Shown: piece by piece, positions 2,725 through 51,986 of the stretch | How the letters are laid out: every line of letters starts with the position of its first letter | Position numbering within the stretch: the stretch's first letter is position 1 | Source of the DNA: an uncultured Gemmatimonadota bacterium | Lineage (GTDB): Bacteria > JAAXHH01 | Reading direction: 5' to 3' | Assembly: GCA_951812955.1 (NCBI GenBank) | Contig: OX638340.1 | Location: forward strand, 2,752,001-2,816,000 | DNA: 64,000 nt | Notes under the pieces: generated by a model | Told to the model about the DNA's origin: nothing | The model's input: only the letters and a program-made list of their open reading frames with translations | Database searches by the model: none | Translations under genes and position numbers: made by a program

Positions 2725-5097
2725 ATGTCCAGCTTGAGCATACTACCCCCCCTGCTTGTCCTGCTACTGCACGTAACGTGGTTGCCGCCCGTCGCCGCCC
2801 AGGAAGCGGAATCCCTCCTGGATCGGGCAAGGACACTGTATGGCGAAGGCGAATACCGGCGGGCGGAGTCCACACTGAGAGGCCTGCTCGAACGGCAACC
2901 CGGATCGCCGCAGGCCTTGCTGTGGCTGAGTCGCACGCTCGACCGGCTGGAACGGTATGACGAGGCCGAGCACGCCGTCAAGGAAGCGCTGAGGGCCGAC
3001 AGCGCTTCCCCGGAACCCCTCATACAACTTGCACGGGTCTACATGCTCAAAGACAAGAATAAAGAAGCGCGGAAGGTCCTGGACGAGGCCGAGAAGCTGG
3101 CGCCTGACAACGCGGACGTATTCTACTATCGCGGGCGCACCTATGGAAAGGTCAGGCTCTCGTTTTTCCGGCCCGGGACGGCCGAGCGGGAATCCCGGAT
3201 CCGGGACGCGTCCTTTCGGCGCGCCATCGAGTTGAACCCGATGCATCCCGATGCTTTATTTCAATTGGGATACGACATCGAAGAGAACAGAAACGATCCG
3301 GCAACCGCGATTGACTGGTATTTAAAGCAGGCGTCCGTAAATCCAGGACATGACGAAGCGGTCAAACGCCTGGCCATCTGTGCCATAAAGGCGAAGGACT
3401 ACCTGCAGGGATACCTGCTGCTGCAGCAGGTCGCCACGGCACAGGGTTCGGCCGTCAACCCCCTGATCGAAGGACTTGCGGGACAGCTCGAAGCCTACCA
3501 CTACCATACCCTCGACCAGCACGAACGAGCTTTCGTGGCCATGCGGCGATACGTCGCGGTCCTGTCGGAAGCCTATCCCGAAGAAGCGGCCGAGTTCAAG
3601 GATCTCTCTCTGGTGGCATCCTCGAAGGAAGCCGAAGCCTTTCGCGAAGCGTCGGAACAGGAAAGGACAGCGTTGTGGCGGACTTACTGGGCAGCCCGCG
3701 ATCCTGATCCGACCACGCGCATCAACGAACGGCTGGTGGAACACTACCGGCGGATGATCTATTCCAGGCTGCAGTTTTCAGGGGGCAAGGATCCCTGGGA
3801 CCGCCGAGGCGAGATCTATGTCCGGTTCGGTCATCCGGACGACCGTCAACAGTTCATCCTGAAATCCGGGGAGGACGTGATCCAGGCGATTTTCCCGACG
3901 GGGATCCGGGACGTGGACATGATCCGCGAACTCAGTCGGCAGCGACTCAATATGCAAGTCAGCACCGGGGCTCCGATCCAGGATTTCGGCGAATTCAGCG
4001 CGCGGGCCGGACGCGAGACCAAATCGGTCGCTTTCCCGACGGAAAGCTGGGTTTACGTCCCCTTCGGCCTGGAGATATTCTTCACCGACCAGCGTAATTC
4101 ACAGGTCTTCGACTACCCGCTCCAGGTGATTGACCTGCCTGACCTGGCGGGTAATTTCGGCACGACGGACCGACTGGCGTACAACTTCCTGAATACGCCG
4201 CGAAAACAGGCGGAGGAATTGGTCAGAAAGGTGTCCGAATACCATCGCCACGACTACGGCGGAGATCCACTCAACTTCGTATACTACCTCGCGTCATTCA
4301 AGGGCACCGATGGCGGGGTGGAGGTGGAAGTGGCCTACAGCGTTCCCTCGGTCCAGCTTGGCAACGTAGAAGATGGTCTCGGAGAACGGACCTGGCTGTC
4401 CGGGCGCCTCGCTCTCCAGGACATGGACTTCAACTTCGTTCAGGGGTTGCCTTTCAAGATGGGACCGCTTCGCCGCCCCGTGTCTGAGCAGGAAAATCTG
4501 CAACTCAGTACAGGAGCGTTCCGGTTCAGCGCGCGGCCCGGGGAGTACCGGTCCGCGGTTTCTCTGCGGGATTCGATTTCGCAGAAGTACGGCATCTTCA
4601 CGTCGCCGCTTCAAATTTCGGATTACAGCGCCAATCAGATGCTGCTGAGCGACATAAAGCTCGCCGCATCCATCGTTCCCACAGATGGAACGGGACTGCT
4701 CGTTCGCAACGGCCTTTCCATTACCCCTCACCCGGCACGCATCTATTCCCACGCGACGCCGGTGTACTTCTACTACGAGATCTACAATCTGGAACGGAAT
4801 GCCGACGGCCGGACAAGATTTCGTACGGAGCTGGAGATTGCCGCCAGGGAACCCAGACGGAACCTCGTATTCAGGCTCTTGACCAACCTGGGCCGGCTGG
4901 TCGGCCAGAGTTCCGATGACCAAACGACCTACACGACCTTCGAAGACGAGGGCACGTGGGTAGACGACTTCAAATACACGTCGATCGAAACGGAGGAACT
5001 GGATCCGGGAACCTACACCCTTACGCTGACCGTCACGGATCTCCATACCGGAGAGAAGGACATGAAGATGGTTGAATTCATAGTGGTCCGGGGATGA
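2725..5097 (+). CDS. Secreted TPR-repeat protein with GWxTD domain (paralog 2)
   Basis: Signal peptide MSSLSILPPLLVLLLHVTWLPPVAAQ. TPR repeats. Motif WDRRGEIYVRFGHPDD. C-terminal region colinear with the upstream paralog. Confidence 0.8.
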   Translation: MSSLSILPPLLVLLLHVTWLPPVAAQEAESLLDRARTLYGEGEYRRAESTLRGLLERQPGSPQALLWLSRTLDRLERYDEAEHAVKEALRADSASPEPLIQLARVYMLKDKNKEARKVLDEAEKLAPDNADVFYYRGRTYGKVRLSFFRPGTAERESRIRDASFRRAIELNPMHPDALFQLGYDIEENRNDPATAIDWYLKQASVNPGHDEAVKRLAICAIKAKDYLQGYLLLQQVATAQGSAVNPLIEGLAGQLEAYHYHTLDQHERAFVAMRRYVAVLSEAYPEEAAEFKDLSLVASSKEAEAFREASEQERTALWRTYWAARDPDPTTRINERLVEHYRRMIYSRLQFSGGKDPWDRRGEIYVRFGHPDDRQQFILKSGEDVIQAIFPTGIRDVDMIRELSRQRLNMQVSTGAPIQDFGEFSARAGRETKSVAFPTESWVYVPFGLEIFFTDQRNSQVFDYPLQVIDLPDLAGNFGTTDRLAYNFLNTPRKQAEELVRKVSEYHRHDYGGDPLNFVYYLASFKGTDGGVEVEVAYSVPSVQLGNVEDGLGERTWLSGRLALQDMDFNFVQGLPFKMGPLRRPVSEQENLQLSTGAFRFSARPGEYRSAVSLRDSISQKYGIFTSPLQISDYSANQMLLSDIKLAASIVPTDGTGLLVRNGLSITPHPARIYSHATPVYFYYEIYNLERNADGRTRFRTELEIAAREPRRNLVFRLLTNLGRLVGQSSDDQTTYTTFEDEGTWVDDFKYTSIETEELDPGTYTLTLTVTDLHTGEKDMKMVEFIVVRG

Positions 5098-5211
5098 GGG
5101 GTTCGAGGTGGCCGATCACGTTCGCGGGATCATTACGTTTGGTTTTCTGATGCGCAGGACGGCCGGCAATCAGCCGGTACGCTTGGCTGATGTTACAAGC
5201 GGGTCGCGGCA

Positions 5212-8200
5212 TCAGGCTCGCTTCTGGCGAACTCCAGGTGCGATCAGGCGGTAGAGCGCGGGGGTTACGAACAGGACGAGAACCGTGGATATTGCAAGGC
5301 CGCTGAGGCCGGTGTAGGACAGGCTGGTCCAGAGATCCCGCGTGGAGGGATGTCCGGTGATGAGCAGCGGTGTGAGCCCCACGAGCGTCGTCAGGGACGT
5401 GATCAGGATGGGACGCAGGCGCTGTCCGGCCGCGGTTATGATCGCCTCATCGAGGAGCATGCCGCTTCGCTGAAGGCGGGCCATGCAGTCCACGAGCAGG
5501 ATCGCGTTGTTGACCACGATGCCGATCATGAAGACGGTGCCGAGATAGGCGCCGCGGTCGAAACTCAGATCGAAATACCAGAAAACAAGGAAAATGCCGG
5601 TCAGCCCCATGGGAACCGTCATCAGAACGACCAGGGCTCGACGGAACGATTCGAACAGGGCCGAGGTAATCAGTAAAACAAGCGCGACGGCCAAGCCTAG
5701 GGCGAAGTTCATTTCACCTCGGTCAGCCTGATCGAAATCCGACCAGTTTGGCACGTCGATGCGGTAGCCCGGCGGTAGATCGACCGACGCGAGAAATGAT
5801 CGGCGGTAGCGGTCGGCCAGGCGGATAGTTCCGACGAACTCATAAGATATCCATCGCTCGTACTGTTGCTCGCTGCGCAGAATGTCCGTCGAAACGCGCT
5901 TGAATGCCAGTACGCCGGCGTCCCCGGCGTTAATTCGGCGATCCGCGCCGCCTAGCGGGATGCGTTCGAAGCCGGTGGTTTGCTCCTTGCGGGCGACAAG
6001 CATTCGATAGGGCACGCGACGACCCTCGATCAGGAGTTCGCCGTCCGGCTGGTGTCGGTCGGTGTACGGGAACAACGCCGTGCTCAAGTCGTTCAGTCTC
6101 ATGCCGGCCCGCGCCAAGACCCGTTGCGACGGTTTCAACTGTAGCTCGTAGTATGGACCGCCGCTCCCGAACCCCCCACGGGGCGAATGGGTGATTTCGA
6201 CGTTACGCACGCGGCGGTGTCTGCCCAGTTTCAAGGCGAGGCGCTCGGCGTGATTCCGCAGGTCGTCGAAATTGTACCCCCGAAGCCGGTAGTTGATAGA
6301 AACGGCCCTTTCGCCACCCGTTGAAAACCCCTGGCCGTAACCGTAAACGCCGATATCCAACCCTCCGAACCGGGTGGCCATGTTCTCCATCTCCGCTTCC
6401 ATGGCGTAGGGCAATGGCGACCGGGCGGTCCTGTCGATGAAGAGGGTGTGCACTCTGGCCCGCGTTTCCTGTACCGTTGCGGTCACCTGGACGCCTTTGC
6501 CCCCCACCGCCAGTGCATATCGTTCGAAAGCTACCGCCACCGAATCCACGGTGGCGGTTTCCATCCCCGGGGGGCCATATATGACGACATCGATATAGGT
6601 GTAGGCGCCGCCCCAGGAGAACGACGGTCCTTTCCACACGTCTGTAATGAAGAGATACACGCTGAGACCGAAGCCGGTCACGATAGCGACCGCGATCGGC
6701 CATCGCCACCGGATCATTCGAGCGACGACGCCTTTGTACCACCGGCCGATGCGCGTTGATTTCCGCGATCCGGCCTGCAAAGTGGCACCTCGGTCCAGGA
6801 GGCGCCCGATCACGGGCACCCAGATGCCGGCGACTGCCACGGAAGCCAGGAGCGTCAGTCCGAGACCGAGCGCGAAGGGACCGATGTGTTGCTTCAACTC
6901 GTTTGAGAGATAGATGATGGGGACGAGGGCGACGACGGTCGTCAGCGTCGTCGCTGCGACGGGTATCAACATTTCCGTCGTGCCCTGCACCGTCGCACTG
7001 TCTCGATCCTCGCCTTCCTCGCGTCGACGTCGGATGTTCTCATACACGACCACCGCGTTGTCCACGAGTATACCGAAAGCCAGGGCGAGACCCGATATGG
7101 TCAACAGATCGAGACCCAATCCGAGTGCCTTGAAGCAGATCATCGCGCCAAGCGCGGAGAGGGCAATGGTGGAGAGGAGTATGACAACCGTCCGCAACTG
7201 ACGCAAAAACAGCAGCAGTAACAGGACGATAGCGATCAGGGCGACGGACACGCGCAGGGCGATGTCCCGCAATGCCAGGCGCACGTCGTCGCTGCGGTCG
7301 ACGATCAACGACAGGACGACGCCCGAAGGCAATAGATCGCCCAGGGTCTCCATTTGATTTTTTACGCGGTCGGCCACGTTGAGCATGTTGGTACCGGGTT
7401 GCCTGGCGATCTCTACGGTGATCGCCGGCAGCCCGTTCACCCGGGACACGCCCTGGGGAGTCGAGAGGGTCCACCGCGTCTCGGCTAGATCGCCAAGACG
7501 CAGGACGCGATCGCCGTCCGAGGTAACGGGCAGTCGGGCCAGGTCGTGTATCCCGACCGCCAAGGGCGCCGTCCACAAAGGGACCGACGCGCCACGTCGA
7601 CGGAGGGTGCCGGCGGCGTGGGATTCGACGCCCAGGCGCAGGGCCCTGTGGAAATCCGCAGGAGACAAGCCGGTATTTTCCATGCGGCTCGCGTCGAGCA
7701 GCAAGTGCAGTTCCTCTTCTCTGCCTCCGATGACCTCGACGTCCGAAACGCCATCGACGGCCAGCAGCGCAGGGCGGATATCCTCCAGCGCCAGTCGACG
7801 TAGCGCATGATCGGTCACAGGACCGGACAAACGATAGCTCATGAAACCATCCAGATCTCGGAAAATCTCGGGCGGTGCCTCGGATACGCGCGGCCGAACG
7901 TGGGGTGGCAGGTCTGGACGCAGGACGGCAAGCCGGTCCACGACGAGGGCGCGCGTGACGGCGACAGGAGCAGCCGGGTCGCAGCCCGCCTGAACGCGCG
8001 CGTTTCCTTCCCTGGAAACAGAGCGGACTTCGACGATGCCGGGAACGGAGGCCAACTCCGCTTCAATAGGCGCCGTCACGTGCTTGACGACGGCTTCGGA
8101 AGAAGCGCCGGGCCAGTCCGCCGAGATGACGAGGGTTGGGTAGTCTATGTCGGGCTGCAACGACAGGGGCAGTTGCGCTAAGGAAGCGACGCCCAGCGCC

Positions 8201-8268
8201 AGGACGACGAGGCCCGCCGCGCCGACGGCGATGGGACGATGAATTGCAGAGGAGAGAAATCTATCCAT
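5212..8268 (-). CDS. RND family efflux transporter permease (AcrB/CzcA superfamily), subunit 2
   Basis: 1018 aa. 12-TM RND architecture with large periplasmic loops; typical N-terminus (IHRPIAVGAAGLVVLALGVASLAQLPLSLQPDIDYP) and many RND consensus blocks. Confidence 0.9.
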   Translation of the reverse strand: MDRFLSSAIHRPIAVGAAGLVVLALGVASLAQLPLSLQPDIDYPTLVISADWPGASSEAVVKHVTAPIEAELASVPGIVEVRSVSREGNARVQAGCDPAAPVAVTRALVVDRLAVLRPDLPPHVRPRVSEAPPEIFRDLDGFMSYRLSGPVTDHALRRLALEDIRPALLAVDGVSDVEVIGGREEELHLLLDASRMENTGLSPADFHRALRLGVESHAAGTLRRRGASVPLWTAPLAVGIHDLARLPVTSDGDRVLRLGDLAETRWTLSTPQGVSRVNGLPAITVEIARQPGTNMLNVADRVKNQMETLGDLLPSGVVLSLIVDRSDDVRLALRDIALRVSVALIAIVLLLLLFLRQLRTVVILLSTIALSALGAMICFKALGLGLDLLTISGLALAFGILVDNAVVVYENIRRRREEGEDRDSATVQGTTEMLIPVAATTLTTVVALVPIIYLSNELKQHIGPFALGLGLTLLASVAVAGIWVPVIGRLLDRGATLQAGSRKSTRIGRWYKGVVARMIRWRWPIAVAIVTGFGLSVYLFITDVWKGPSFSWGGAYTYIDVVIYGPPGMETATVDSVAVAFERYALAVGGKGVQVTATVQETRARVHTLFIDRTARSPLPYAMEAEMENMATRFGGLDIGVYGYGQGFSTGGERAVSINYRLRGYNFDDLRNHAERLALKLGRHRRVRNVEITHSPRGGFGSGGPYYELQLKPSQRVLARAGMRLNDLSTALFPYTDRHQPDGELLIEGRRVPYRMLVARKEQTTGFERIPLGGADRRINAGDAGVLAFKRVSTDILRSEQQYERWISYEFVGTIRLADRYRRSFLASVDLPPGYRIDVPNWSDFDQADRGEMNFALGLAVALVLLITSALFESFRRALVVLMTVPMGLTGIFLVFWYFDLSFDRGAYLGTVFMIGIVVNNAILLVDCMARLQRSGMLLDEAIITAAGQRLRPILITSLTTLVGLTPLLITGHPSTRDLWTSLSYTGLSGLAISTVLVLFVTPALYRLIAPGVRQKRA

Positions 8269-8274
8269 GGACGG

Positions 8275-11200
8275 TCAGTTCTCATTGGCGGCGCGGACCG
8301 GTCCGGCCAGCAGTCGGTAAGCGAGGGGTACTACGAACAGGGTCAGCGCGGAACCTATGATCAATCCGCCGATGAGTGTACGCGCCAGTGGCGCGCCCAG
8401 TTCACCGCCCGCGCCGAACCCTGCGGCCAGCGGCGCGACACCGCAGACCGTGGTCACGGTCGTCATTAGAATCGGACGCAATCGGCGCCGGCCTGCCTCG
8501 TGAATGGCCTCCCTGCGGGAAAGTCCTTCTCTTTCGGCACGCACGATGAAATCGACTTTCAGGATCGCATCGTTCACGACGATACCGACAAGGACGATAG
8601 CGCCGATCCAGGTGATGACGTTGACGCTCGCCCCCCACAGGCTAAGGACGACGACAGCGCCCGCCAGCGCCAGGGGAACGACGGCGATGATGATCCACGG
8701 AAGGCGTAGCGATTCGAACTGGGCCGCCAGGATCAGGAGTACGATCAGAATCGAGAACGCCAGCGAGATCAGCATGGACCGATAGGCTGTTCGCAACGTC
8801 GACTGGGCGCCGCCGATATCGACTTCCAGACCGTCCGCCCGGTTGCTCGTCCATCCCGCGTCCGCCAGCAGGCCCCGTATGCGATCGGATACACCGATCA
8901 GGTCGTCACTGTCGATATCCGCGTTTACGATCGCTACGGGCGTCTGGTCGACGCGATACAGTTCGCCTGCGACTTCGACTGGTTCGACCGTTGCCAACGT
9001 GCGTATGGGAACCCGGCCCACGGCCGTATCGATGGGTTCGTCCAGAATGGCCTGCAACCCGGGCTGTTCCTCCTGGCTTCCCCGCACCACGATGGGTATG
9101 CGTTCATCGGTTCGGTTGAACATGGTCGCCGTCCGTCCATCCATGTAGGTACGCAACGCGTCGGCGATCTTCGCGGGCTCCACGCCGAGTTGCGCGGCGC
9201 GGCGTTCATCCACCACGACGCGATAGCCCGGTCGTCCTTCGACCCCCTGAAGGACGACATCAGCCAGCGGCAACCCGGACGCACTCAACAACGACCGCAG
9301 GACTTCCGCAACGTTTCCGGACGTGTTTTGATCGTCGCGTCCGTCGCTTCTGCGCGTGAGCACCTTGATGGATACGTCGGGTTGGTTTCCGATCAGCGCT
9401 GTCGACATGGCGGTGACCGGCGGTTTCATTTCGACCGCGGTTCCCAGGTGAACCGGAATCTGCCTCCTCAAGGTCGCCATGGCCGTTTGGACGTCGGTCG
9501 CGGTTTCATCGAGATAAACCTGTATCTGCGCCTGTTCAAGTCTCATGGCCCCCGGCGCCGACCCCGGCACGAAGGAAGACACGGCTGCGCCCGCCGTGGT
9601 CAGCGTGCCGCGCACCCCCGGGAGGGAGCGAGCGATGTCGGACAGTTCGCGTGCGGATTCCAGGGTGGCTTCCAACGAAGAACCCTGCGACAGCGAAAGT
9701 TCCATCCAGAACGCACCTTCATCGACTTTCGGAAAGAATGCCCGGGGAAGGGACCGACCCAGGTGCGCAGCGGCTGCCAAGAAAACCAGCAACAGGACCG
9801 AAGTCCGTATCGGATGATCGATGATTGCGTCCACGGCGCGGCGATACATATCATGGAACCTGGAGGACCGCGACGATACGCGGGTGGCGTCGCGCCGCGT
9901 CCATCGGGCCACGAGGGTAGGGAGCAGGGTCAGCGCCACGACCCACGCGAGCAGGAGCGTCACGGTGACGGCCAGCGCCTGATCCCGGAATAACTGTCCC
10001 GCGACGCCCGGCGTCAAGGCCATCGGCAGGAATACCGAGACGGTGGTGAGCGTAGATGCGGCCATGGGCAGTGCCACCTCCGTGGCGCCGCGTCCCGCAG
10101 CCGAATTCGCGTCGAGGCCGGTCTCCCGGTGCCGCGCGATGTTCTCGACGGAGATGATGGCGTTGTCCACCAGCATGCCGACGCCGAGTGCCAGGCCACC
10201 AATGGACATGACGTTCAATCCCACGTCTAGCGTGTCGAAAACGAAGAAGGAAGCGATAACGGCCACCGGCATGGCGATTGCTACGGGGATAGCGTAACGG
10301 ACGTTCCGGAACCAGAGAAGCAGGGCTAGGAACGCCAGCACGCCGCCGCCGGCCAGTGCCGTCAGCGCACCCCGGATGGACCGCCGGACGAAGTCGGCCT
10401 GATCGAATGCCGAGGTCAGCGCGATATCCGGATATTCGGCGTAGAATCCCACTATCACCCGATTAACATCGTCGCTGGTCGTCAGCAGATTTGCGTCCGC
10501 GGTCTTCTGGATCAGGACACCGACGGCGGGCATCCCGTCGAACAGTACGGCCCCCAGCCGCTCGCGTTCGCCCATCTCCACCTCCGCCACGTCGCGTAAA
10601 CGTATCGGTGCGGCCCCGGGTTCGCGGATCAGCACGGCTTCGCGCATATCCTCCAGGGACCGGAATGCGCCGTCAATCCTCAGGGCGTAGCGGTAGTTTC
10701 CGCGACGAAGGAGACCGGCGGGCTTGTCCTGATTATATGCCGCCAGCATTGCGTGTACGGCGTCCAGGGTCAGATCGTACGCGGAGAGACGGGTGGGGTC
10801 TATCGTGATCCGTACCTCCGGCCCGGCGCCGCCGATCACCCTGGCGCGGGCGACGCCCGGCGTCTGTTCCAGCCGGGGTCGCAGTATACGCTCTCCCATC
10901 TGTTGCAACGTAGCCAGGGAAGGTCCATCCTCCCCTGATCCGGATCTGAGCGCCAGGCCCATCATGGGCGCGTTGTCGGGATCAGTATCCAGAACCACGG
11001 GACGGTCGCTGTCCTCGGGCAGGTTAAACCGTTGCGCGTCCAGCCTTTCGCGCACGATCTGGACCGTGTTTCGAAGATCGGAGCTCCAGGCCAGTTCGAC
11101 GGTCACGAGGGATTCGCCCTCCCTGGAGATGGACCGCACCCGTTGTGCGCCGGGCAGGTTCCGCAGGGTTGATTCTATGGGTTCGGTGATCTCCCGGACG

Positions 11201-11376
11201 ACCAGACCCGGCGGGGCGTTGGCCCAGGTCGTCCACACGGTGACGGCGGGGATCTCAAGGGGCGGAAGCAGATTGACGGGAAGACGGGTCAGGGCGATGA
11301 GTCCTACGAGTACGGCGGCGCCCATAAGGCAACAAGTGGCGACAGGCCGTTGAACGGCAAGGCGGGAGAGATTCAT
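8275..11376 (-). CDS. RND family efflux transporter permease, subunit 1
   Basis: 1033 aa. N-terminus MNLSRLAVQRPVATCCLMGAAVLVGLIALTRLPVNLLPPLEIP is typical of RND permeases. Lies 7 bp upstream of the second permease. Confidence 0.9.
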   Translation of the reverse strand: MNLSRLAVQRPVATCCLMGAAVLVGLIALTRLPVNLLPPLEIPAVTVWTTWANAPPGLVVREITEPIESTLRNLPGAQRVRSISREGESLVTVELAWSSDLRNTVQIVRERLDAQRFNLPEDSDRPVVLDTDPDNAPMMGLALRSGSGEDGPSLATLQQMGERILRPRLEQTPGVARARVIGGAGPEVRITIDPTRLSAYDLTLDAVHAMLAAYNQDKPAGLLRRGNYRYALRIDGAFRSLEDMREAVLIREPGAAPIRLRDVAEVEMGERERLGAVLFDGMPAVGVLIQKTADANLLTTSDDVNRVIVGFYAEYPDIALTSAFDQADFVRRSIRGALTALAGGGVLAFLALLLWFRNVRYAIPVAIAMPVAVIASFFVFDTLDVGLNVMSIGGLALGVGMLVDNAIISVENIARHRETGLDANSAAGRGATEVALPMAASTLTTVSVFLPMALTPGVAGQLFRDQALAVTVTLLLAWVVALTLLPTLVARWTRRDATRVSSRSSRFHDMYRRAVDAIIDHPIRTSVLLLVFLAAAAHLGRSLPRAFFPKVDEGAFWMELSLSQGSSLEATLESARELSDIARSLPGVRGTLTTAGAAVSSFVPGSAPGAMRLEQAQIQVYLDETATDVQTAMATLRRQIPVHLGTAVEMKPPVTAMSTALIGNQPDVSIKVLTRRSDGRDDQNTSGNVAEVLRSLLSASGLPLADVVLQGVEGRPGYRVVVDERRAAQLGVEPAKIADALRTYMDGRTATMFNRTDERIPIVVRGSQEEQPGLQAILDEPIDTAVGRVPIRTLATVEPVEVAGELYRVDQTPVAIVNADIDSDDLIGVSDRIRGLLADAGWTSNRADGLEVDIGGAQSTLRTAYRSMLISLAFSILIVLLILAAQFESLRLPWIIIAVVPLALAGAVVVLSLWGASVNVITWIGAIVLVGIVVNDAILKVDFIVRAEREGLSRREAIHEAGRRRLRPILMTTVTTVCGVAPLAAGFGAGGELGAPLARTLIGGLIIGSALTLFVVPLAYRLLAGPVRAANEN

Positions 11377-11612
11377 GATCGCTCAGGTATAGTGGCCGTC
11401 CGCGATACGATAGACCGCGATTCGGGGGTTGGGCTCGCCGTCCTCAACGGGCGCCATATCGACCCGTACATTTCGTCGTCGAGATCAGGCGGCGTGTCGC
11501 GTACCCACTCCAGGTTGGAATCCCGCGCGGTGGCGGGGTCGGAAGATACAACCAGAAGGGCGAAGATCATCACGGGGATAACGAGTTTCAACACGTTGTC
11601 TCCTCTCGTCAC
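11373..11612 (-). CDS. Small hypothetical protein (signal/TM-anchored) inside the RND operon
   Basis: 79-aa ORF that overlaps the adaptor stop and the permease start with ATGA overlaps at both ends. GAGGAG sits upstream of an in-frame GTG. Hydrophobic N-terminus LKLVIPVMIFALLVVSS; the rest is low complexity. Unconfirmed. Confidence 0.25.
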   Translation of the reverse strand: MTRGDNVLKLVIPVMIFALLVVSSDPATARDSNLEWVRDTPPDLDDEMYGSIWRPLRTASPTPESRSIVSRTATIPERS

Positions 11613-12820
11613 TCCATCATGCTCACGCTCACCGGGACGTCATGGGCCAGCGTGACGTTTCCGGTAACGGCCACTGTATCGCCTTCGGCGAGTCCGGAGG
11701 TGATTTCTCGCCAGTCGTCTGCCTCCCGGCCCAAGGCGACGTAGGTCCACTGGGCCCGTCCATCCCGTATTCGAAAGACCAGGGGGCGCTCGTCGCGGAC
11801 GACGATGGCGCCGGCGGGCACGGCCAACCGGTTCTCGTAGAGCGTACCCTCGATTCGGATCTCGGCGTACATGCCCGGTTTCAGCCGGCCGTCGGCGTTG
11901 GGCAGGTCGGCCTCAACGTAGCCCGTGCCCCTTTCCTCGTCCACAGCGGGGTAGATACGGGCGATGCGGCCTTCGAAGGATTCTTCCGGCCAGGCGACAA
12001 CCCGAATCCGTATGCCGCGGCCGATGTCGACTGCGCCTAAGTCGCTTTCCAACACGGCGGCCTTGACGCGGATACGGGACACATCCATGATCGTGAGGCA
12101 GGTTTCCCCGGCGGCGACCTGTTGACCTTCTTCGACGAGTCGTTCTGCGATGATGCCGGAATAGGGGGCGTTGATGGCGGTTTGTTCCAGGTCCAACACG
12201 GCGCGAGCATGAGCGATCTCCGCTCCGGTAAGGCCGGTATTCTGCGCGATGAGATCATACCTGTGATCCCCGGAGAGTAACTGCACGGCTTCGTAGTCTC
12301 TGCGGGCGGTCTGAAGCGCCGCCTGATCGATTTCCTCCCGCTCGATGGCAGCTTGCGCCTTGCGCCAGGCGTTTCTCTTGGTGTGTGTCCAGGTCGTATC
12401 GGGCGCCGTGACTTCGGTAGTGTCGGTGATGAATAGCGCGTACCTGTACCGGGCGTCCATGAGCGCCGAACGGGCTTCGTCCACCTGGATGCGGAACCGT
12501 TCTTCTTCCAGTCGTGCCAGGAGTTGGCCCTCATTGACAGTTTCGCCCTCGCGTACCAGGACGCTTTGGATTCTGCCGCCTACCCCCGCGCTCAGATCGG
12601 TCCGTCGTCCGGCCAGGAGACGACCGGAGGCCACGATCGTCCTCGTCAGCGTCCTTTGGGTTGCTACCGCGGCTTCCACGGGGAAGGGCTGCGGCTCGGT
12701 TTCCACCGGGACGGCACCCATAGGCTCGTTCGAAGTACCGGTCGGTTCGGGTCGCAGGAATATGACCGCCGCGACAATGGCGAGGATGACGATAATGAGG
12801 ATGGGAATGATCGTTTTCAT
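11609..12820 (-). CDS. Efflux RND transporter periplasmic adaptor subunit (membrane fusion protein, HlyD family)
   Basis: N-terminal TM anchor (MKTIIPILIIVILAIVAAVIFL); biotinyl-lipoyl-like and beta-barrel regions; C-terminus RIRDGRAQWTYVALG...GDTVAVTGNVTLAH typical of MFPs. Confidence 0.88.
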   Translation of the reverse strand: MKTIIPILIIVILAIVAAVIFLRPEPTGTSNEPMGAVPVETEPQPFPVEAAVATQRTLTRTIVASGRLLAGRRTDLSAGVGGRIQSVLVREGETVNEGQLLARLEEERFRIQVDEARSALMDARYRYALFITDTTEVTAPDTTWTHTKRNAWRKAQAAIEREEIDQAALQTARRDYEAVQLLSGDHRYDLIAQNTGLTGAEIAHARAVLDLEQTAINAPYSGIIAERLVEEGQQVAAGETCLTIMDVSRIRVKAAVLESDLGAVDIGRGIRIRVVAWPEESFEGRIARIYPAVDEERGTGYVEADLPNADGRLKPGMYAEIRIEGTLYENRLAVPAGAIVVRDERPLVFRIRDGRAQWTYVALGREADDWREITSGLAEGDTVAVTGNVTLAHDVPVSVSMME

Positions 12821-12823
12821 GGA

Positions 12824-13273
12824 TTATCCTGAATGATTGGCATTCCCCATGAATATCATACGATGCTCGAGAATCAACTTCCGACGTATGGGTTTGCCGG
12901 GTGAATAGCTCAGATACCCCCCGAAGCCTCTTTCTCTTGCGTACACGTGCGCGACGGGTTGGAATTGTGCTCGATACACACTGTAATAGAACACCATTTG
13001 AATGGGACGGATCAGTCTGACCAACAAACTGGCCTTGATTGTGCGTCGAGGGAAATGTACGTCGCCGTCGTCATTGGTTGTCCTATCCTGGCTGCTATAG
13101 GTTTTTTCAAGGGCGAAGTGCCGCCAATACTGGTGTACGTCAACACCTTTCAGCGGGTAACCGTCCCTGTCGAACACAGTAACGCTCCAGGCAGGTACTA
13201 CGGTGGACTCTACAGGATAGCCTATTACAACTGCTGTGACAAGAATGATCACTGTCACAAAGTATTTGCGCAT
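12824..13273 (-). CDS. Hypothetical secreted protein
   Basis: 149 aa with a signal peptide (MRKYFVTVIILVTAVVIGYP). Sits in a locally AT-richer patch. Its stop lies 4 bp from the adaptor start and it overlaps the MauE gene end. No recognisable family. Confidence 0.4.
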   Translation of the reverse strand: MRKYFVTVIILVTAVVIGYPVESTVVPAWSVTVFDRDGYPLKGVDVHQYWRHFALEKTYSSQDRTTNDDGDVHFPRRTIKASLLVRLIRPIQMVFYYSVYRAQFQPVAHVYARERGFGGYLSYSPGKPIRRKLILEHRMIFMGNANHSG

Positions 13274-13731
13274 TTAAACGCCTCCCTTATTGAAAATGGA
13301 ACGTGACGCGCGTAGACAAGACTTGAAGCGGCCGCCAATATGAACGTATTCCGAACCAGCACTTCGGCAATGGAGACGTTTCTTAAGTCATCGCCTAATC
13401 CGAAACAACCGCACGGCAGGTCTGCCCCGTAATACAGCCCCCAGGCCAGCGCGCCCATAAAGGACAACATCAGCAGCACAACGATCATCGCGCTATATCG
13501 GATCCATACCCCAATCACGAGACATAAACCGGTTGAGATTTCGATCCAGGGCAACGCAAGGGCGAAAGGGACTGCCAGCGGCTCGGGTACAATGTCATAC
13601 GACCGCACGATCTGCGCGAAGAGTTCGAGCTCCGGCATCTTGGCCAACCCTGCCCAGATAAAGATACCCCCTACCACTAAACGCAGCGCCAGGAGACCGA
13701 AGGGAACTATACGATCGTGTCCGCTTGCCAT
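13255..13731 (-). CDS. MauE/DoxX family membrane protein
   Basis: Four predicted TM helices and the CGCFG motif (DLPCGCFGLGDD) characteristic of methylamine-utilisation MauE-like / DoxX proteins. Confidence 0.7.
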   Translation of the reverse strand: MASGHDRIVPFGLLALRLVVGGIFIWAGLAKMPELELFAQIVRSYDIVPEPLAVPFALALPWIEISTGLCLVIGVWIRYSAMIVVLLMLSFMGALAWGLYYGADLPCGCFGLGDDLRNVSIAEVLVRNTFILAAASSLVYARHVPFSIREAFKCANTL

Positions 13732-13755
13732 GATTCATTTACCCCCGATGCATTT

Positions 13756-14844
13756 CTACAATGTGTCGAGAGGTTGCCTGAGCGTGTATGTCACTACGGC
13801 GGGATTGGATGACTCGTCGGCGGGTTCCACCAACATGTACAGACGATCTTCCCGTGTGAAGAGCGCGTCCGGACCTCCCATGAAATCCGGCATCTGGAGA
13901 CTGCTCGCGATCTGGTTCAGATCGGCATCGTACAGATCCATGAAGACGCGGGACCCTTGCGGGTCGGCGAATACTGCGCCCAGCCACCGATCGCCGATTC
14001 TAAGGAGTTGATAGAACTGGCTCCATGAACGCATATACTCCTGCCGTTTCCGCATGTCGTCCAGGACCATCGCGTCGGGCGGGTCCCGCGGAGGCACGTA
14101 GAAGGGCGATCGACCCTGCGCGGTTTTCACGAGTTCGCCATCGGGCGTGTATTTCCTCACGGTATATTCGTACGGGGTCGCGACGTAGAGAAACCGCCCG
14201 ACCGATACAATCCCTCCACCCCGTGAAGCCGCGGCGACATTGTAGTTCTCGGACTGAGGGGCGAATTCATTGAGCGTATCGCCCTGATCGTTCAATTCGT
14301 GCACCACGTGAATTGCGCCGCTGGTATTCACGTATCCGAAAACCCGACCCTCGGCAGTTACGTGTATATCTTCCAATCGCGGCGAAGGCGAGAAGCTGTT
14401 CCTGAAAACATAGTCGTTCCCGTAGATTGAAATGCGTGACAGCGTCATGTCGTAAAGTAAAAAAACTCCATCTCGCGTAGCCGCCAATGCAAGGGGATAG
14501 CGATACTCGCCGGGACCATCGCCCGGAGCGCCGAGGTGTTTTTTGCCTCGTCCCTTCCCATCGAATACGTCGACGCGAGTGGTAACGAAGTCCAGCACGA
14601 TGCAATCACCGTTGGACGCCACGGCGCCGATCTTGGGCAAAGGACCGAGCAGGAACTCATCGCTCGAATCGAGATTGATCCTCGATTCCACCCGGTAGAC
14701 ATCGTCGAATGTCAACGGTCGCTCCTGGCTCGCGCATGCCAACGGTCCGCACAGTCCGCATAGTATGAACAGCGCAATGGCAGAACGCGAAGCGGGACAC
14801 CATCTTGTAACGGGTGTAAAGGAACTGAGGTTTTTCGTGCTCAC
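13756..14844 (-). CDS. 6-bladed beta-propeller lipoprotein, TolB-like/NHL-like (paralog A)
   Basis: Signal peptide plus lipobox-like LAC. Repeated beta-strand blades (GDCIVLDFVTTRVDVFDGKG, LYVATPYEYTVRKYTPDGELV). Clear paralog of 15566..16717. Confidence 0.7.
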   Translation of the reverse strand: MSTKNLSSFTPVTRWCPASRSAIALFILCGLCGPLACASQERPLTFDDVYRVESRINLDSSDEFLLGPLPKIGAVASNGDCIVLDFVTTRVDVFDGKGRGKKHLGAPGDGPGEYRYPLALAATRDGVFLLYDMTLSRISIYGNDYVFRNSFSPSPRLEDIHVTAEGRVFGYVNTSGAIHVVHELNDQGDTLNEFAPQSENYNVAAASRGGGIVSVGRFLYVATPYEYTVRKYTPDGELVKTAQGRSPFYVPPRDPPDAMVLDDMRKRQEYMRSWSQFYQLLRIGDRWLGAVFADPQGSRVFMDLYDADLNQIASSLQMPDFMGGPDALFTREDRLYMLVEPADESSNPAVVTYTLRQPLDTL

Positions 14845-14889
14845 GGTGCGTATCCTTTCTATGTCGCGTTGTGCTTCGCCGTCGTGGAA

Positions 14890-15531
14890 TCAACCTTGTG
14901 CCGCGATGGTATTGATGTAGACGCCAAGCTTCTCATAGAAAGTGACGGTTCCCTGTTCGTCCTGATAATCCGAGTAATTCGCCAGTAGAACTCGATTGTC
15001 ACGTCCCAGAAACACGATCAAGGGGTATCTGTTGTAATCGAACCTCTTTAACAGATGTGATTCGGCGTCCATTACGGCAACGTCTTGAATCCGGTATTGT
15101 TTCAGATGAGAGAGAAAATGGGTCTCTTGAAAATCGGAAAAAACCATAATGGCGTCTATGTTTCTTTCCCTCAAGCGACTACGATACTCGTTGAACAACC
15201 GAAGCTCCATGTCCAGACAGCGGTTGCAGTTCGTTCCCGCAAAATGGTAGATCAGCTTATAACCGCCCGTATCCGAAAACAGGTCTCTGAACCTGGTGTT
15301 GGCGCGCTGCAATCGAGCTAGATCCGGTCCCAGACCAGCGCCTTCAAGCGCATGTTCATGGATGGTCAATTGTTCGCCTATGCTCATGGTCACCTTGTTC
15401 TTCCACGTGCCGTTTTCGGCGGTTAACTCCGATACTCTTTGGAACAGCACGATATTCAATGTGAGCAAGGAAACAATTCCGGCTAAAAGCCATTTTCGAG
15501 GTATGTCGAGACTAACCGCATTCGATGACAT
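14890..15531 (-). CDS. Thioredoxin-fold protein with CxxC motif (TlpA/MauD-like redoxin)
   Basis: N-terminal TM/signal anchor (WLLAGIVSLLTLNIVLF). Redox motif GTNCNRCL (C-x-x-C) in a thioredoxin-like context. Confidence 0.6.
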   Translation of the reverse strand: MSSNAVSLDIPRKWLLAGIVSLLTLNIVLFQRVSELTAENGTWKNKVTMSIGEQLTIHEHALEGAGLGPDLARLQRANTRFRDLFSDTGGYKLIYHFAGTNCNRCLDMELRLFNEYRSRLRERNIDAIMVFSDFQETHFLSHLKQYRIQDVAVMDAESHLLKRFDYNRYPLIVFLGRDNRVLLANYSDYQDEQGTVTFYEKLGVYINTIAAQG

Positions 15532-15565
15532 GCGGACACCTCCTACGGGCTTTACTGTAATACGC

Positions 15566-16717
15566 TTAACCCGATGATTTGAGTTCGTAGACGACTACAG
15601 TTGGATTGGGCAGATTCTTAACGTCCTGCGACAACACGACGGGTGCTTCTGAACGCAGCAGATAGAGTCGGTCACCCCTGGAGACGATCCCCTGCGAACC
15701 ACCGCCAATGTGCTCGGGCAATTGCAGGTCGCCGGTAACGTAATTGAGATCTGTGTCGTAGAGATCCAAAAACACGCGACGCTCATTTGGTTCGGCCAGG
15801 ACCACTCCTATCATCTCGTCTCCTATCTTCAACAGTTGTCTTATGTGGCTCCACGTGGCGTGGTACGCTTGTCGTTTGCGGAGATCGCTCGAAATTTCGT
15901 GCTCATCAAAGTCTGTCGAAGGCGGCACATAGTGCGACGATCTGCCCCGTACCGTTCGAATCAGTTTTCCACCAAGATCGTACTTCCGAAGTTCGTACTC
16001 ATAGGGGGTGATTACATAAAGGTGTGAACCAAGCAGCAAGATACCTCCCCCTCTGGATTCTCCCACGGTACTGAACTCCTCGTATTGATCGGCGAAACTG
16101 TTCTTGATCTCTCCTGACCTAGTGCACTCGTAGACTACCCTATCGGCCCCCTTCCTGCTAGCGACACCACTCGTATAGCAAAAGAAGCGATCGTCGGCTG
16201 TCACGATAATCTGACCCAGGAAAAGAGGAAGATCGACACTGCTGTTGAACGTAAAATCTTCGCTGTACTCCTGGATTCGCAGAAGATCTCCATCGTATAC
16301 GTAGTACCTGTGTGTTTGATCGCTATAGTAAAGGTTATCGGGGTAGAGGTATTGGTCCGCATTCGTCCCAAGACTTCCAATCTTCGCCTTGCTTCCGCCC
16401 TTGGAGTCGAATACAAGTATCTGTCGAACCCCGAAGTTATCCAACACAATGAAATCGCCCTGTTCGTTTATCGCGCTGAACCAGGGCAAAGCGCTCAGCG
16501 TGAAGCCCGAATCATTGGCAAGCGGGATCTGACGTATTTCTGTATACACTTCCAAGAAAGACTGTTTATCTCCATAGGAATCGGCGAGATGAGCAATGGA
16601 TGTATTGCGGGCTTCTTCCATCGAACCATGAGTACTCTGACACGCCATTGCTCCCATGAAAAACACCATTAGCGAAAAGGACAGCAACCGTAGCGTTTCA
16701 TTCGTTCGCTCTGACAT
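15566..16717 (-). CDS. 6-bladed beta-propeller lipoprotein, TolB-like/NHL-like (paralog B)
   Basis: Signal peptide plus AMAC lipobox-like. Blades GDFIVLDNFGVRQILVFDSKG and LYVITPYEYELRKYDLGGKLI are colinear with paralog A. AGGAGG lies 9 nt upstream of the ATG. Confidence 0.7.
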   Translation of the reverse strand: MSERTNETLRLLSFSLMVFFMGAMACQSTHGSMEEARNTSIAHLADSYGDKQSFLEVYTEIRQIPLANDSGFTLSALPWFSAINEQGDFIVLDNFGVRQILVFDSKGGSKAKIGSLGTNADQYLYPDNLYYSDQTHRYYVYDGDLLRIQEYSEDFTFNSSVDLPLFLGQIIVTADDRFFCYTSGVASRKGADRVVYECTRSGEIKNSFADQYEEFSTVGESRGGGILLLGSHLYVITPYEYELRKYDLGGKLIRTVRGRSSHYVPPSTDFDEHEISSDLRKRQAYHATWSHIRQLLKIGDEMIGVVLAEPNERRVFLDLYDTDLNYVTGDLQLPEHIGGGSQGIVSRGDRLYLLRSEAPVVLSQDVKNLPNPTVVVYELKSSG

Positions 16718-16750
16718 GGTTGGATTCCCTCCTCATTAGCTTGCCTTTAA

Positions 16751-17087
16751 CAGTACAACCGGAAAGTGCTCGCTTCTTAAGTTGACGCTTATCGTGAATC
16801 GAACCACCACAATCCTATCGGTCAGGCTTGACTACGCTCAAGGCCAGGTATGAGCGCTAAATGGAGAACAATGATGAGATGTCGAGGGCTGGCAGTGGTA
16901 CACGTTATTTGCTACATGTACCCAATTGTATACTTGATTGGCTCCTGCCGGCTCCGTGGACAACGCCAGCATGCTCATTGCGCCGGCCATCGTCAATGCA
17001 CCGACGAACATTACACGAGTGAAGATGCTTCTGATTGAAGTTTTGATGACCGTGCTCCTTTCATTGTGCCTTTCCGGTTGTACTGTG
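16751..17087. repeat. Perfect 16-bp inverted repeat (cagtacaaccggaaag / ctttccggttgtactg) flanking a 305-bp AT-richer segment
   Basis: Read directly from the sequence. Left arm 16751-16766, right arm 17072-17087. The IR extends to 17 bp with one more matching base. Confidence 0.8.
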
Positions 17088-17170
17088 CAATGAATAAAAT
17101 GACACCTGACCGATAGTCATCAACAGATACATATTGGAAGTGGAAACGGCTGGATATTTAGGGTAAAACC

Positions 17171-17692
17171 CTACACCTCCATAATCTCCACCAGTTCGTC
17201 TTCAGGATACGGGAAATGCCCCTGGGTACCCCGGTTGACCCGGGCCATGCGCTCCCCGAACACCATGTCTTCTCTGATCAATTCCGAAGTCCTGTGAATG
17301 CACTCCAACGTTGGGATTCCTCCTGTCGCGATCGCTGCTTCGGCTTCCTCCAGAAGAGCCGTCATGTCGTAAAACATCTTGATATTCGGCGACAGCATCT
17401 TGCGAGCCTGTTCCGGCAGTGAGGCGCGTAACTCCAGACAGAGATCGAGGGCTTTCAGAAGATGTTCCCTCGCGATTCGAAAGCACTTCCGTGCTTTACT
17501 CAGTGAAGCGCGATACGGCAGGATATTTCCCGCCAGGCAGGCGCCCAGATCTTCTATTTCCTCCAGGGCGCCAAGTCCCATGAAATAGTGGCCCCATCCC
17601 GTAAGTGTGAGCGGATAGATCCGGTGTTCGAAGGCTTCTTTGAGCTCCACATTGTCTGGCATCGGCGGAAGTGGGCAGGTCCAATCAGACAT
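17171..17692 (-). CDS. Hypothetical protein (173 aa)
   Basis: Clean ORF with no family recognised. First gene downstream of the palindromic operator-like site at 17793-17809. Confidence 0.5.
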   Translation of the reverse strand: MSDWTCPLPPMPDNVELKEAFEHRIYPLTLTGWGHYFMGLGALEEIEDLGACLAGNILPYRASLSKARKCFRIAREHLLKALDLCLELRASLPEQARKMLSPNIKMFYDMTALLEEAEAAIATGGIPTLECIHRTSELIREDMVFGERMARVNRGTQGHFPYPEDELVEIMEV

Positions 17693-17792
17693 TGTAGGCC
17701 TCCTTCAGTACATCAATTGGTGAAGAGACTCGCGGAGATGGAACACTGGAACGATCTACCCATTAAAGAAAGGAAAGCCGGACCGGTTATCT

Positions 17793-17809
17793 ATAGGGTG
17801 TATCCCTAT
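17793..17809. promoter_or_regulatory. Palindromic operator-like site ATAGGGTGTATCCCTAT, copy 1
   Basis: Perfect 6-bp arms with a 5-bp spacer. About 100 bp upstream of the start codon of 17171..17692 (minus strand). A near-identical copy lies at 18612-18628. Confidence 0.45.
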
Positions 17810-17890
17810 TTGCTCGTTTTTTTTCACCGGAATCGAAAAAACCTGATTCCGGTCTTGAAGGAGTAGAGCGTCTCCTTTAAACGAACGTGT

Positions 17891-18526
17891 TCATTCTTCC
17901 ATTTTGATCAGACCAAGTTTGATCGCCGCTCGGATCAGATCGGGAAGGCTGTGCGTGTCTAGTTTCGCCATCAGATTTATGCGATGATTCTGCACGGTTT
18001 TTATACTGATTCGCATGGTTTCGGCTATCTGGCGATTGGATCGCCCCGATACGATCAGTCGAAGGATTTCGCGCTCACGGGGAGTAAGCCGGGGCGGTGT
18101 GCCATGGGGGTACTCCTCATACAGGTAATCGGCATGATCCATGGCCCGGGATTGGTACGTAACGCCCCTGCAAACGGTGCGTATCGCTTTGACCAACTCT
18201 TCGCCCGCTGATTTCTTGAGCACGTAGCCCCTGGCGCCGTTGTCCAGCGCTTTCCGGATCAGTGCGGGATCGGAATGCATCGACAGCATGACCACCCGGA
18301 CCTCGGAAAACGACGCGCGAATCCGCCTCGTCGCTTCGATACCGTTGATACCGGGCATCTCGACGTCCATCACTATGACGTCCGTTCGGACTCGATGCAC
18401 GGCATCGATCGCCTCCCGGCCATCCACGGCCTCGGCGACTATTCGAATATCGGACTCTTTTTCGAGCAGGTCCCGCAGCCCCTGCCGAATCAGATGATGA
18501 TCGTCTGCAATCACTACGCGTATCAT
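17891..18526 (-). CDS. LuxR/NarL-family response regulator (REC + HTH)
   Basis: MIRVVIADDHHLIRQGLRDLL...DVIVMDVEMPGINGIEA... C-terminal LuxR HTH (LTPREREILRLIVSGRSNRQIAETMRISIKTVQNHR). Confidence 0.9.
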   Translation of the reverse strand: MIRVVIADDHHLIRQGLRDLLEKESDIRIVAEAVDGREAIDAVHRVRTDVIVMDVEMPGINGIEATRRIRASFSEVRVVMLSMHSDPALIRKALDNGARGYVLKKSAGEELVKAIRTVCRGVTYQSRAMDHADYLYEEYPHGTPPRLTPREREILRLIVSGRSNRQIAETMRISIKTVQNHRINLMAKLDTHSLPDLIRAAIKLGLIKMEE

Positions 18527-18611
18527 ATGATGTTCGCGATCTCCTCTTCTGGTCGTTACATGACGAAATCCGTCGTTTGCTCAATACTAACAACAAAAAG
18601 GGGGACTATCC

Positions 18612-18628
18612 ATAGGGTGTTTCCCTAT
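18612..18628. promoter_or_regulatory. Palindromic operator-like site ATAGGGTGTTTCCCTAT, copy 2
   Basis: Located in the 196-bp gap between the two response-regulator genes, about 85-100 bp upstream of the 17891..18526 start codon. Confidence 0.45.
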
Positions 18629-18722
18629 GTTCCGCTTTTTCTTACGGTATTGGGGGGCTGAAGTGGCGAGAGAGATAGACTGCGGCCAACCGGATTGCTA
18701 CCAAGCGGGGAAAGACGACGGT

Positions 18723-19376
18723 TCATTCATCCAGGAAAGCGAGACGGTGCTTGAGGGCCAGGAGTATGAGATCCGGCAGATTGTGGACTTTCAACTTCTT
18801 CATCAGGATCGCGCGGTGTTTTTCCACGGTCTTGTCGCTGATGTTCAGGACCTCCGCCGCGGCCTGATTGGTATGTCCCTCGACGATGAGCTGAAGTATC
18901 TCCCGTTCGCGGGATGAAAGCTGCTCCAGAACGGCCTTTGACTCATTCGCCGATTCCGTCTGCAGGAATCCCGATAGCACGGTTTGAGCAATCGAAGGTG
19001 AAAGATAGATTTCGCCCTTGTTGGCGGACCGGATGGCGATCAGGAGTTCCTCCACGACGGATCTCTTGAGGAGATACCCGCTGGCCCCGCATCTGAGCGC
19101 CTGGCGCACCACGTCCTCATCCGAATGCATGGATAGTATGACGACGCGGGTATCGACGGACAGCGTCTGAATCCGCCGCGTGGTCTCGATACCGTTCAGC
19201 AAAGGCATGGCGATATCCAACATGGCGACGTCCGGTCTCTTCCGTTGTACCAGGTTCAGGGTCTCGTGACCATCGGCCGCTTCGCCGACAACTTCCATAT
19301 CCTCGGCCTTTTCGATTAGAGACACGATGCTTTGACGGACCAGTTGGTGATCGTCGGCAATAACGATCCTGATCAT
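18723..19376 (-). CDS. LuxR/NarL-family response regulator (REC + HTH), paralog
   Basis: MIRIVIADDHQLVRQSIVSLIE... LSSREREILQLIVEGHTNQAAAEVLNISDKTVEKHR. Its start overlaps the kinase stop (ATGA). Confidence 0.9.
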   Translation of the reverse strand: MIRIVIADDHQLVRQSIVSLIEKAEDMEVVGEAADGHETLNLVQRKRPDVAMLDIAMPLLNGIETTRRIQTLSVDTRVVILSMHSDEDVVRQALRCGASGYLLKRSVVEELLIAIRSANKGEIYLSPSIAQTVLSGFLQTESANESKAVLEQLSSREREILQLIVEGHTNQAAAEVLNISDKTVEKHRAILMKKLKVHNLPDLILLALKHRLAFLDE

Positions 19377-45119: not shown

Positions 45120-45242
45120 ACCTCTATCTTTGCTTGAAGAAACGACAGGGCACCAGACGGTCAGGCGATTCACATGGTAGAAGGTATGCGTCTTTCCTCG
45201 AAGTCATCCGGTTCCACACGGTGCGGGCCCAATCCATACTGG

Positions 45243-51906: not shown

Positions 51907-51980
51907 TGGGCGCTAGTGGACTCGAACCACTGACCTCCACGATGTGAGCGTGGCACTCTAACCGGCTGAGCTAAGCGCCC
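51907..51980 (-). tRNA. tRNA-Val (anticodon CAC)
   Basis: Manual fold of the reverse complement: acceptor GGGCGCT/AGCGCCC; D-arm GCTC...GAGT; anticodon stem CCACG/CGTGG with loop CTCACAT; T-arm AGTGG TTCGAGT CCACT; discriminator A. Confidence 0.7.
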
Positions 51981-51986
51981 GGCAAA

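Follow-up and report, generated by a model that had tools for sequence, protein, structure and literature searches.

The resistance-nodulation-division (RND) efflux operon cusCFBA carries inside it the gene for a periplasmic accessory protein, CusF. The acrZ gene is not known to be encoded within acrAB. AcrZ is a small transmembrane protein that binds AcrB (PMC7267776). RND pumps with two permeases include MdtABC of Escherichia coli and MuxABC-OpmB of Pseudomonas aeruginosa, with an MdtB2C1 heterotrimer (PMC7015380); MdtB/MdtC-type pairs are ~50% identical, versus 25 to 30% for other RND paralogues (PMC7015380). The 64,000-nucleotide stretch of DNA analyzed here (the window), from an uncultured member of Gemmatimonadota, contains an RND operon in which an open reading frame (ORF) of 79 codons fills the gap between the gene for the periplasmic adaptor and the first of two permease genes. 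An earlier note on this DNA saw in this ORF a small AcrZ-like accessory subunit or else an unusually exact chance ORF. With a probability of about 0.93, it is instead a decaying remnant (pseudogene) of a gene for a secreted six-bladed β-propeller of the DUF5128/NHL type, ~335 amino acids (aa) long.

All four genes of the operon are on the minus strand, with the layout, coordinates, and lengths that the note had given. The adaptor (membrane fusion protein; 403 aa, positions 11609 to 12820) matches Pfam HlyD_D23 (3.7e-31) and NCBIfam TIGR01730 (RND_mfp; 204 bits, cut-off 94.9) and has a hydrophobic anchor at its N terminus without a lipobox cysteine. It is followed by the 79-codon ORF (240 nucleotides [nt], 11373 to 11612), permease 1 (1,033 aa, 8275 to 11376; ACR_tran, 2.7e-203, profile positions 2 to 1020 of 1021), and, six bases after the stop of permease 1, the more divergent permease 2 (1,018 aa, 5212 to 8268; ACR_tran, 1.4e-139), with both permeases intact.

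The assignment of the ORF to the propeller family rests on both of its ends. A hidden Markov model built from 61 secreted DUF5128/NHL propellers matches it with profile positions 1 to 45 in the listed frame (44 codons, 11463 to 11594, minus strand; E = 9e-8) and with positions 305 to 327 in another frame of the same gap (11383 to 11462, minus strand; E = 8e-9). In blastp, the same two pieces align to all 16 copies of the propeller in loci L001, L004, L005, and L007, the N-terminal part to residues 1 to 46 of every copy. The N-terminal relic includes a predicted Sec-type signal peptide (MLKLVIPVMIFALLVVSSDPATA, followed by RD) and, as LEWVRDTPPDLDDE, the family's leading conserved motif (xEKVRxIPLDLGDE). 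The C-terminal relic, (V)DMAPVEDGEPNPRIAVYRIADGHYT, is encoded by a separately listed 24-aa ORF (11383 to 11457) and retains what is probably the ancestral stop codon (TGA, 11383 to 11385), six bases ahead of the permease 1 ATG; the same 6-nt spacing is found in L001 and L013. About 260 residues, corresponding to alignment columns 50 to 340 of 372, are missing between the two pieces, and no complete six-blade domain is encoded in a single frame, as the retained pieces lie in different ones. An assignment of the N-terminal part to the first copy of a former array and of the C-terminal part to the last was considered and dropped, as the scores do not discriminate between copies.

An intact relative is the 335-aa protein P0004 of L001, which matches the DUF5128 (1.2e-8) and NHL (1.7e-6) domains in Pfam. 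Its AlphaFold2 model is a six-bladed propeller (mean pLDDT, 87.8), with the nearest folds in PDB being the NHL domains of TRIM71 and Brat, the DUF4221 protein BVU_1028 from Bacteroides, BF0058, and BtuG. The family comprises ~65 proteins of ~330 aa that are 41 to 49% identical, and all its named NCBI records come from Gemmatimonadota.

Relatives of the 79-aa product itself are few. Only two, P0001 and P0002, came out of a word-indexed search covering 5.8 billion proteins and an exhaustive phmmer scan of 1.84 billion representatives; a third candidate, the 352-aa repetitive protein P0003, matched by phmmer in five stretches, was judged spurious. P0001 (72 aa) has the same sequence as the window product, including its tail, and probably comes from the same genome, so that it does not constitute independent evidence. 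P0002 (69 aa), encoded in L003, shares its first 43 residues with the window product and then has a different tail, VDMAPVEDGEPNPRIAVYRIADGHYT, which is also encoded in the window, in the frame of the 24-aa ORF; in P0002, both profile matches share one frame. Over an alignment of ~340 nt, the window and L003 differ only in a run of G residues, GGGG in L003 and GGG in the window (11463 to 11465), and the ORF in the window is therefore a frameshifted version of the 69-aa ORF.

The features of the ORF that had suggested a functional gene can be traced to the same origin. The GAGGAG-GTG alternative start pointed out earlier is real: GAGGAG (11600 to 11605) is followed after a 5-nt spacer by GTG (11592 to 11594) and then by TTG (11589 to 11591), which was chosen as the start of P0001 and P0002 by their gene callers. 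The same sequence, GAGAGGAGACAA(C/T)GTGTT(G/T)AAACTC, precedes the intact gene of L001 and the relic of L013, so that GAGGAG-GTG appears to be the start of the propeller gene itself. The hydrophobic N terminus is likewise present, and it aligns to the signal peptides of the propeller family, with A-T-A coming next; it is most simply read as an inherited signal peptide. Of the two ATGA overlaps that were claimed for the ends of the ORF, the one at its stop exists (TGA with the ATG of permease 1), whereas the other does not: the first start codon of the ORF is GTG (11610 to 11612), which overlaps the adaptor TGA (11609 to 11611) in a GTGA junction, with no ATG there.

The exact filling of the gap is statistically unremarkable. 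When the 234-nt interior is shuffled, a given frame is free of stop codons in 8% of cases and at least one of the three frames in 23%; for the 29-codon tail downstream of the frameshift, the figure is 43%. The fit has three causes: the relic keeps the old start region, the 18 nt that separate this start from the adaptor stop happen to be free of stop codons, and the old gene had its stop 6 nt ahead of the permease ATG. Once the frame had shifted, reading would simply happen to run on to the TGA inside the permease 1 ATGA. None of these three causes implies a function.

Comparison of orthologous operons shows the gap in a variety of states, and the short ORF is not conserved in them, an outcome that the earlier note had itself named as refuting its reading. 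L001 and L002 are species-level relatives found by a search with permease 1 (a scan of JGI metagenomes with the same query found no relative); the sub-clade of the window is defined here by adaptors that are 85 to 100% identical to its own. Within this sub-clade, L001 (adaptor 87% identical) has one intact 335-aa gene, with the same GAGGAG-GTG start and a stop six bases before the permease ATG. L013 (85%) has a 126-aa in-frame relic that joins residues 1 to 29 to residues 237 to 333, the latter segment being 91% identical to L001. L003 (100%) has the 69-aa in-frame relic, and the window has a relic of the same type with the 1-nt frameshift. In L002 and L008 to L011 (nine contigs; 91%), nothing is left, with a single nucleotide between the adaptor stop and the permease ATG, and the same holds for L012 (85%), where the sequence of the junction differs. 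The breakpoints in L013 differ from those of the L003-type relic, so that the two relics are apparently independent, and at least three separate losses of the propeller gene seem to have occurred within the sub-clade. One contig of the L002 type, the metagenomic L009, has permease 1 called as two proteins of 824 and 198 aa (6214 to 9311), through either a frameshift or an assembly error.

More distant relatives, with adaptors 62 to 64% identical, carry four to six propeller genes in tandem between the adaptor and permease 1: five copies in L004 (9001 to 14272) and L005 (4838 to 9990), four in L007 (10001 to 14582), four intact copies and a damaged fifth in L015 (10255 to 15441) and L016, and about six, two of them damaged, in L017 (10233 to 16334). 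These loci share the synteny of the window, with genes for PhoH, YbeY, CNNM, and a sulfatase, then the operon, and then a 790-aa TPR protein on the other strand. Since such outgroups have arrays in the same surroundings, the loss would be the derived state.

The following sequence of events would account for these data. An ancestral propeller gene lay between the adaptor and the first permease. An internal deletion of ~260 codons (profile positions ~46 to 300), probably between two short similar stretches (GDEI and GDELYG), would have brought the last ~27 codons (..DDEMYGVD..) directly behind those for the signal peptide and first motif (..DLDDE). A further loss of 1 nt from the G run in the genome of the window would then have shifted the frame, so that reading passes the old stop at 11383 to 11385 and ends at the TGA within ATGA. 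With ~70 of ~335 codons kept, distributed over two frames, no propeller can form from the product, which most likely has no function as a protein; at most, its translation still delivers ribosomes to the start of permease 1. The relic agrees with the family in 13 of 23 columns that are at least 90% conserved, compared with 19 of 23 for L001, and violates three invariant columns. At the DNA level, it is 67% (N-terminal part) and 78% (C-terminal part) identical to L001, compared with 89% for the adaptor and 91% for permease 1. These figures point to a relic under relaxed constraint.

Several observations weigh against the pseudogene assignment. The full-length parent in the lineage of the window itself is deduced from its relatives. 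At the protein level, the N-terminal part is only 43% identical to L001, and it may stem from another paralogue in a former array. The relic still has a start codon, preceded by a good Shine-Dalgarno sequence and followed by a signal peptide, and gene callers annotate the ORF (P0001 and P0002), so that a short exported peptide could be made. Both apparently independent partial deletions, in L003 and L013, are in frame, and every state of the gap ends translation within 6 nt of the permease 1 ATG, which hints at some constraint, probably translational coupling. Finally, the 1-nt frameshift could be an assembly error, in which case the true product of the window would be the 69-aa in-frame relic.

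The hint of constraint leads to the alternative that survives best, namely that the relic is kept for a role in cis. Ribosomes translating it, whether recruited by its own Shine-Dalgarno sequence or coupled from the adaptor, would be carried to the permease 1 ATG, so that the position of the stop would matter and not the peptide. The permease 1 ATG lacks a strong Shine-Dalgarno sequence of its own, and the translated ORF in front of it ends 6 nt away in the intact gene, L013, and L003, overlaps it in the window, and is replaced by the adaptor, ending 1 nt away, in L002 and L012; the in-frame nature of both deletions fits as well. Against this, internal deletions preserve the 3′ end by default, a stop-free tail of 29 codons turns up in 43% of shuffles, and the permeases are intact in lineages without any relic. 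Only three relic states are known, which makes the coupling reading no more than suggestive. Such a role seems doubtful, if worth keeping in mind, and it is compatible with the pseudogene explanation, not opposed to it.

That the ORF is a functional AcrZ-like subunit, a short membrane protein binding a permease, is very improbable. The idea drew on the hydrophobic N terminus, the tight coupling to both neighbors, and the good Shine-Dalgarno sequence. However, the hydrophobic segment lines up with the cleavable signal peptides of propeller proteins, the tail after the frameshift is an out-of-frame sequence rich in Arg, Ser, Pro, and Thr, and the ORF is absent from L002, whose permeases are 95 to 97% identical to those of the window, and from L008 to L012, while its length and sequence differ in L003, L013, and L001. 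Pfam, AcrZ included, gives no match at E ≤ 10 to the 79-aa, 73-aa, or in-frame 70-aa version, in either frame, and NCBIfam gives none at E ≤ 1 to the frameshifted 73-aa version. Hardly more credible are a chance ORF in a noncoding spacer, for which the 8% frequency of a stop-free frame speaks, and a structured RNA in that place: at the protein level, the two ends of the spacer are significantly homologous to a gene family, Rfam finds only two tRNAs in the whole window at gathering thresholds (51907 to 52060, none in the gap) and nothing at E ≤ 1 between 11250 and 11750, and a scan of positions 5000 to 18000 for promoters and terminators places no site in the gap, with counts at or below the shuffle expectation.

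Apart from the pseudogene, the operon is intact and encodes an ordinary RND efflux system, with a single adaptor anchored in the membrane and two diverged permeases in fixed order. The earlier note had read the similar lengths of the permeases as suggestive of an MdtBC-like heteromeric pump. The lengths are indeed similar (1,033 and 1,018 aa), but the sequences are not: pairwise identity is ~30% in the N-terminal half and 40% in the final 160 residues, so the two are no closer to each other than to other RND paralogues. The one adaptor followed by two ordered permeases is a conserved MdtBC-like arrangement, but the scores against the NCBIfam models for MdtB/MuxB (NF007798; 382 bits for permease 1 and 221 for permease 2, cut-off 1,584) and MdtC (NF007905; 362 and 232, cut-off 1,774) fall far short. 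The permeases are not MdtB/MdtC orthologues, because of the ~30% identity, because of scores far below these equivalog cut-offs, and because the MdtB/MdtC duplication is placed within Proteobacteria (PMC7015380).

Permease 1 is 99.9% identical to its counterpart in L003, 97% in L002, and 92% in L001; permease 2 is 95% identical in L002, 89% in L001, and 61% in L005. The solved structure closest to permease 1 is that of E. coli MdtB (9lyq, 360 bits). The proton-relay residues of AcrB, a permease of the HAE-1 type, are D407, D408, and K940, and this type of relay, Asp-Asp in transmembrane segment 4 (TM4) and Lys in TM10, is absent from both permeases of the window. At the putative relay positions, TM4 has VDNA in both, compared with VDDA in E. 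coli MdtB, whereas TM10 has VNDA in permease 1 and, by motif search, VNNA in permease 2, compared with KKNA in MdtB (residues 400 to 407 and 931 to 939 of permease 1; 399 to 406 and 916 to 924 of permease 2). These motifs are conserved in all orthologues examined (for permease 1, identical in six), and the arginine of the LRPIL motif in TM11 is kept. The spacing between the two permease genes is ~88 nt in L001 (9099 to 9188) and L013 (9700 to 9789) and 6 nt in the window, L002, L003, and L012.

Whether the two permeases form one heterotrimer on the single adaptor, as in MdtB2C, or two homotrimers that share it is a close question, with the heterotrimer somewhat short of even odds. The gene order, with a 6-nt spacer between the permeases, favors it, as does the preservation of the pair and its order, at identities from 61 to 67% up to 99%, in every relative whose contig reaches permease 2. 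The asymmetry in TM10 is conserved, and the NCBIfam scores lean weakly in the expected direction, permease 1 toward MdtB and permease 2 toward MdtC. On the other hand, ~30% identity is the level seen between unrelated RND paralogues, both proteins are far under the equivalog cut-offs, and with the MdtB/MdtC duplication inside Proteobacteria (PMC7015380), a heteromer here would have arisen independently. A heteromeric pump that works like MdtB2C is possible.

No outer-membrane factor is encoded in the operon, and the absence of a TolC-like gene from the window, also reported before, was borne out: there is no match to the OEP/TolC family (PF02321) among the 29 window ORFs scanned, a set that takes in all those of 350 aa or more except ORFs that merely shadow a longer gene, and no OEP/TolC gene is called in the tabulated related loci (L003 to L017). 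The outer-membrane channel is presumably encoded elsewhere. This is unremarkable, because E. coli mdtABC likewise uses tolC, which is encoded elsewhere. Genes for a TamB-like protein (1,570 aa) and an Omp85/POTRA protein (624 aa) at 40407 to 47048 on the plus strand indicate that the organism has an outer membrane (diderm).

The propeller arrays of the relatives are themselves a lead, if only a mildly novel one. It is conceivable, but unlikely, that the propellers cooperate with the pump in the periplasm, for instance in substrate capture or hand-over, and are thus a new kind of RND accessory component; the sub-clade of the window would then be losing them after the gain of an upstream module that encodes a conserved, secreted Cys/Trp peptide of 69 aa, a thioredoxin-like protein, a MauE/DoxX protein, and two further propellers. 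This suggestion draws on the copy number of up to six, the conservation of individual paralogues across genomes, and the lipoprotein paralogue encoded upstream of the arrays. No paper describing an adaptor-propeller array-permease arrangement was found in the literature, and the term DUF5128 occurs in none of the papers searched. By eye, from their N- and C-terminal sequences, the paralogues look conserved by position, with the last copies ending in VVYRLKN, VVYQLRN, or VVYQLKN; several copies in the arrays are truncated or split. The paralogue upstream of the array (342 to 343 aa) has a lipobox (L-[ST]-G-C), and its counterpart in the window is a 362-aa gene at 13756 to 14844.

The upstream module spans ~10 kb (12824 to 22159, minus strand) in the sub-clade of the window and is missing from the syntenic loci of the more distant relatives, in which the genes for the lipoprotein propeller and the adaptor come immediately after that for the sulfatase. 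Its presence coincides with a propeller array cut to one copy or none, and the sub-clade that gained the module seems to be the one in which the array was lost. The extra genes, all on the minus strand, encode a 149-aa ORF with a weak match to DUF6795, a MauE/DoxX protein (13255 to 13731), a thioredoxin-like protein (14890 to 15531), a 383-aa DUF5128 propeller (15566 to 16717), a 69-aa peptide (16838 to 17047), a 173-aa ORF without an NCBIfam match, two LuxR-type response regulators, and a PDZ histidine kinase (19373 to 22159). From 16717 down to 5212, the gaps between genes do not exceed 45 nt, and these genes may form one long operon with the pump.

The gene for the 69-aa peptide lies upstream of that for the 383-aa propeller; its product carries a signal peptide and is nearly the same across six relatives (including L003, 546 to 755; L008, 776 to 985; L012, 2777 to 2986; L013, 775 to 984; and L014, 1037 to 1246). 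Its predicted mature part (~33 aa, from an inferred cleavage site), NQVYNWVH(I/V)ANNVYHCQxSTSxHCSPxSAHTWP, contains two Cys and two Trp residues; it has no NCBIfam match and no significant Pfam match, and its gene was not found in the sulfatase-propeller spacers of the more distant clade. The copy in the window has lost its start, with ATC where L003 has ATG after AAAGGAG, and the next ATG, at 17011, would give 57 aa. Elsewhere in the window, a 416-aa ORF (36326 to 37576, minus strand) has an N6/N4 DNA methylase domain and, at its C terminus, a weak match to HNH_5, and the two tRNA genes mentioned above are adjacent and on the minus strand.

With the ORF recognized as a relic, a false candidate for a new small pump subunit is removed, and it becomes clear that an ORF fitting exactly between two genes can be the mere residue of a larger one. 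The locus and its close relatives make a clear case of stepwise gene loss within an operon: the gene is intact in L001, reduced to in-frame relics, apparently independent, in L003 and L013, frameshifted as well in the window, and cleanly deleted elsewhere. The lead to retain comes from the relatives, where a propeller array stands between a conserved adaptor and two permeases with noncanonical relay residues.

Compared with known systems, this is a further case of a described kind, the two-permease RND efflux operon, with a pseudogene relic inside it. The two ends of the relic are homologous to the N and C termini of the DUF5128 (PF17170)/NHL propellers, but ~70 of ~335 codons in two frames do not make a folded member of that family. 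The resemblance to AcrZ goes no further than the notion of a short, hydrophobic partner protein for an RND permease; the ORF has no family match, is not conserved with the pump, and owes its hydrophobic segment, in all probability, to a propeller signal peptide. CusF in cusCFBA resembles the ancestral state only, in that secreted periplasmic proteins are encoded between the pump genes in L001, L004 to L007, and L015 to L017; these are propellers and not a small β-barrel, their copy number varies from 0 to 6, and any interaction of theirs with the pump would be hypothetical. The permeases differ from those of MdtABC and MuxABC in their mutual identity of ~30%, in scores of 382 and 232 bits against cut-offs of 1,584 and 1,774, in TM4/TM10 residues (D-N/N-D and D-N/N-N instead of DD/K), and in belonging to a Gemmatimonadota lineage, outside the proteobacterial duplication (PMC7015380). 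As in E. coli MdtABC, the operon is without an outer-membrane factor gene, and as in both MdtABC and MuxABC, one adaptor is followed by two RND permeases in a fixed order, the first of which has MdtB as its closest solved structure.

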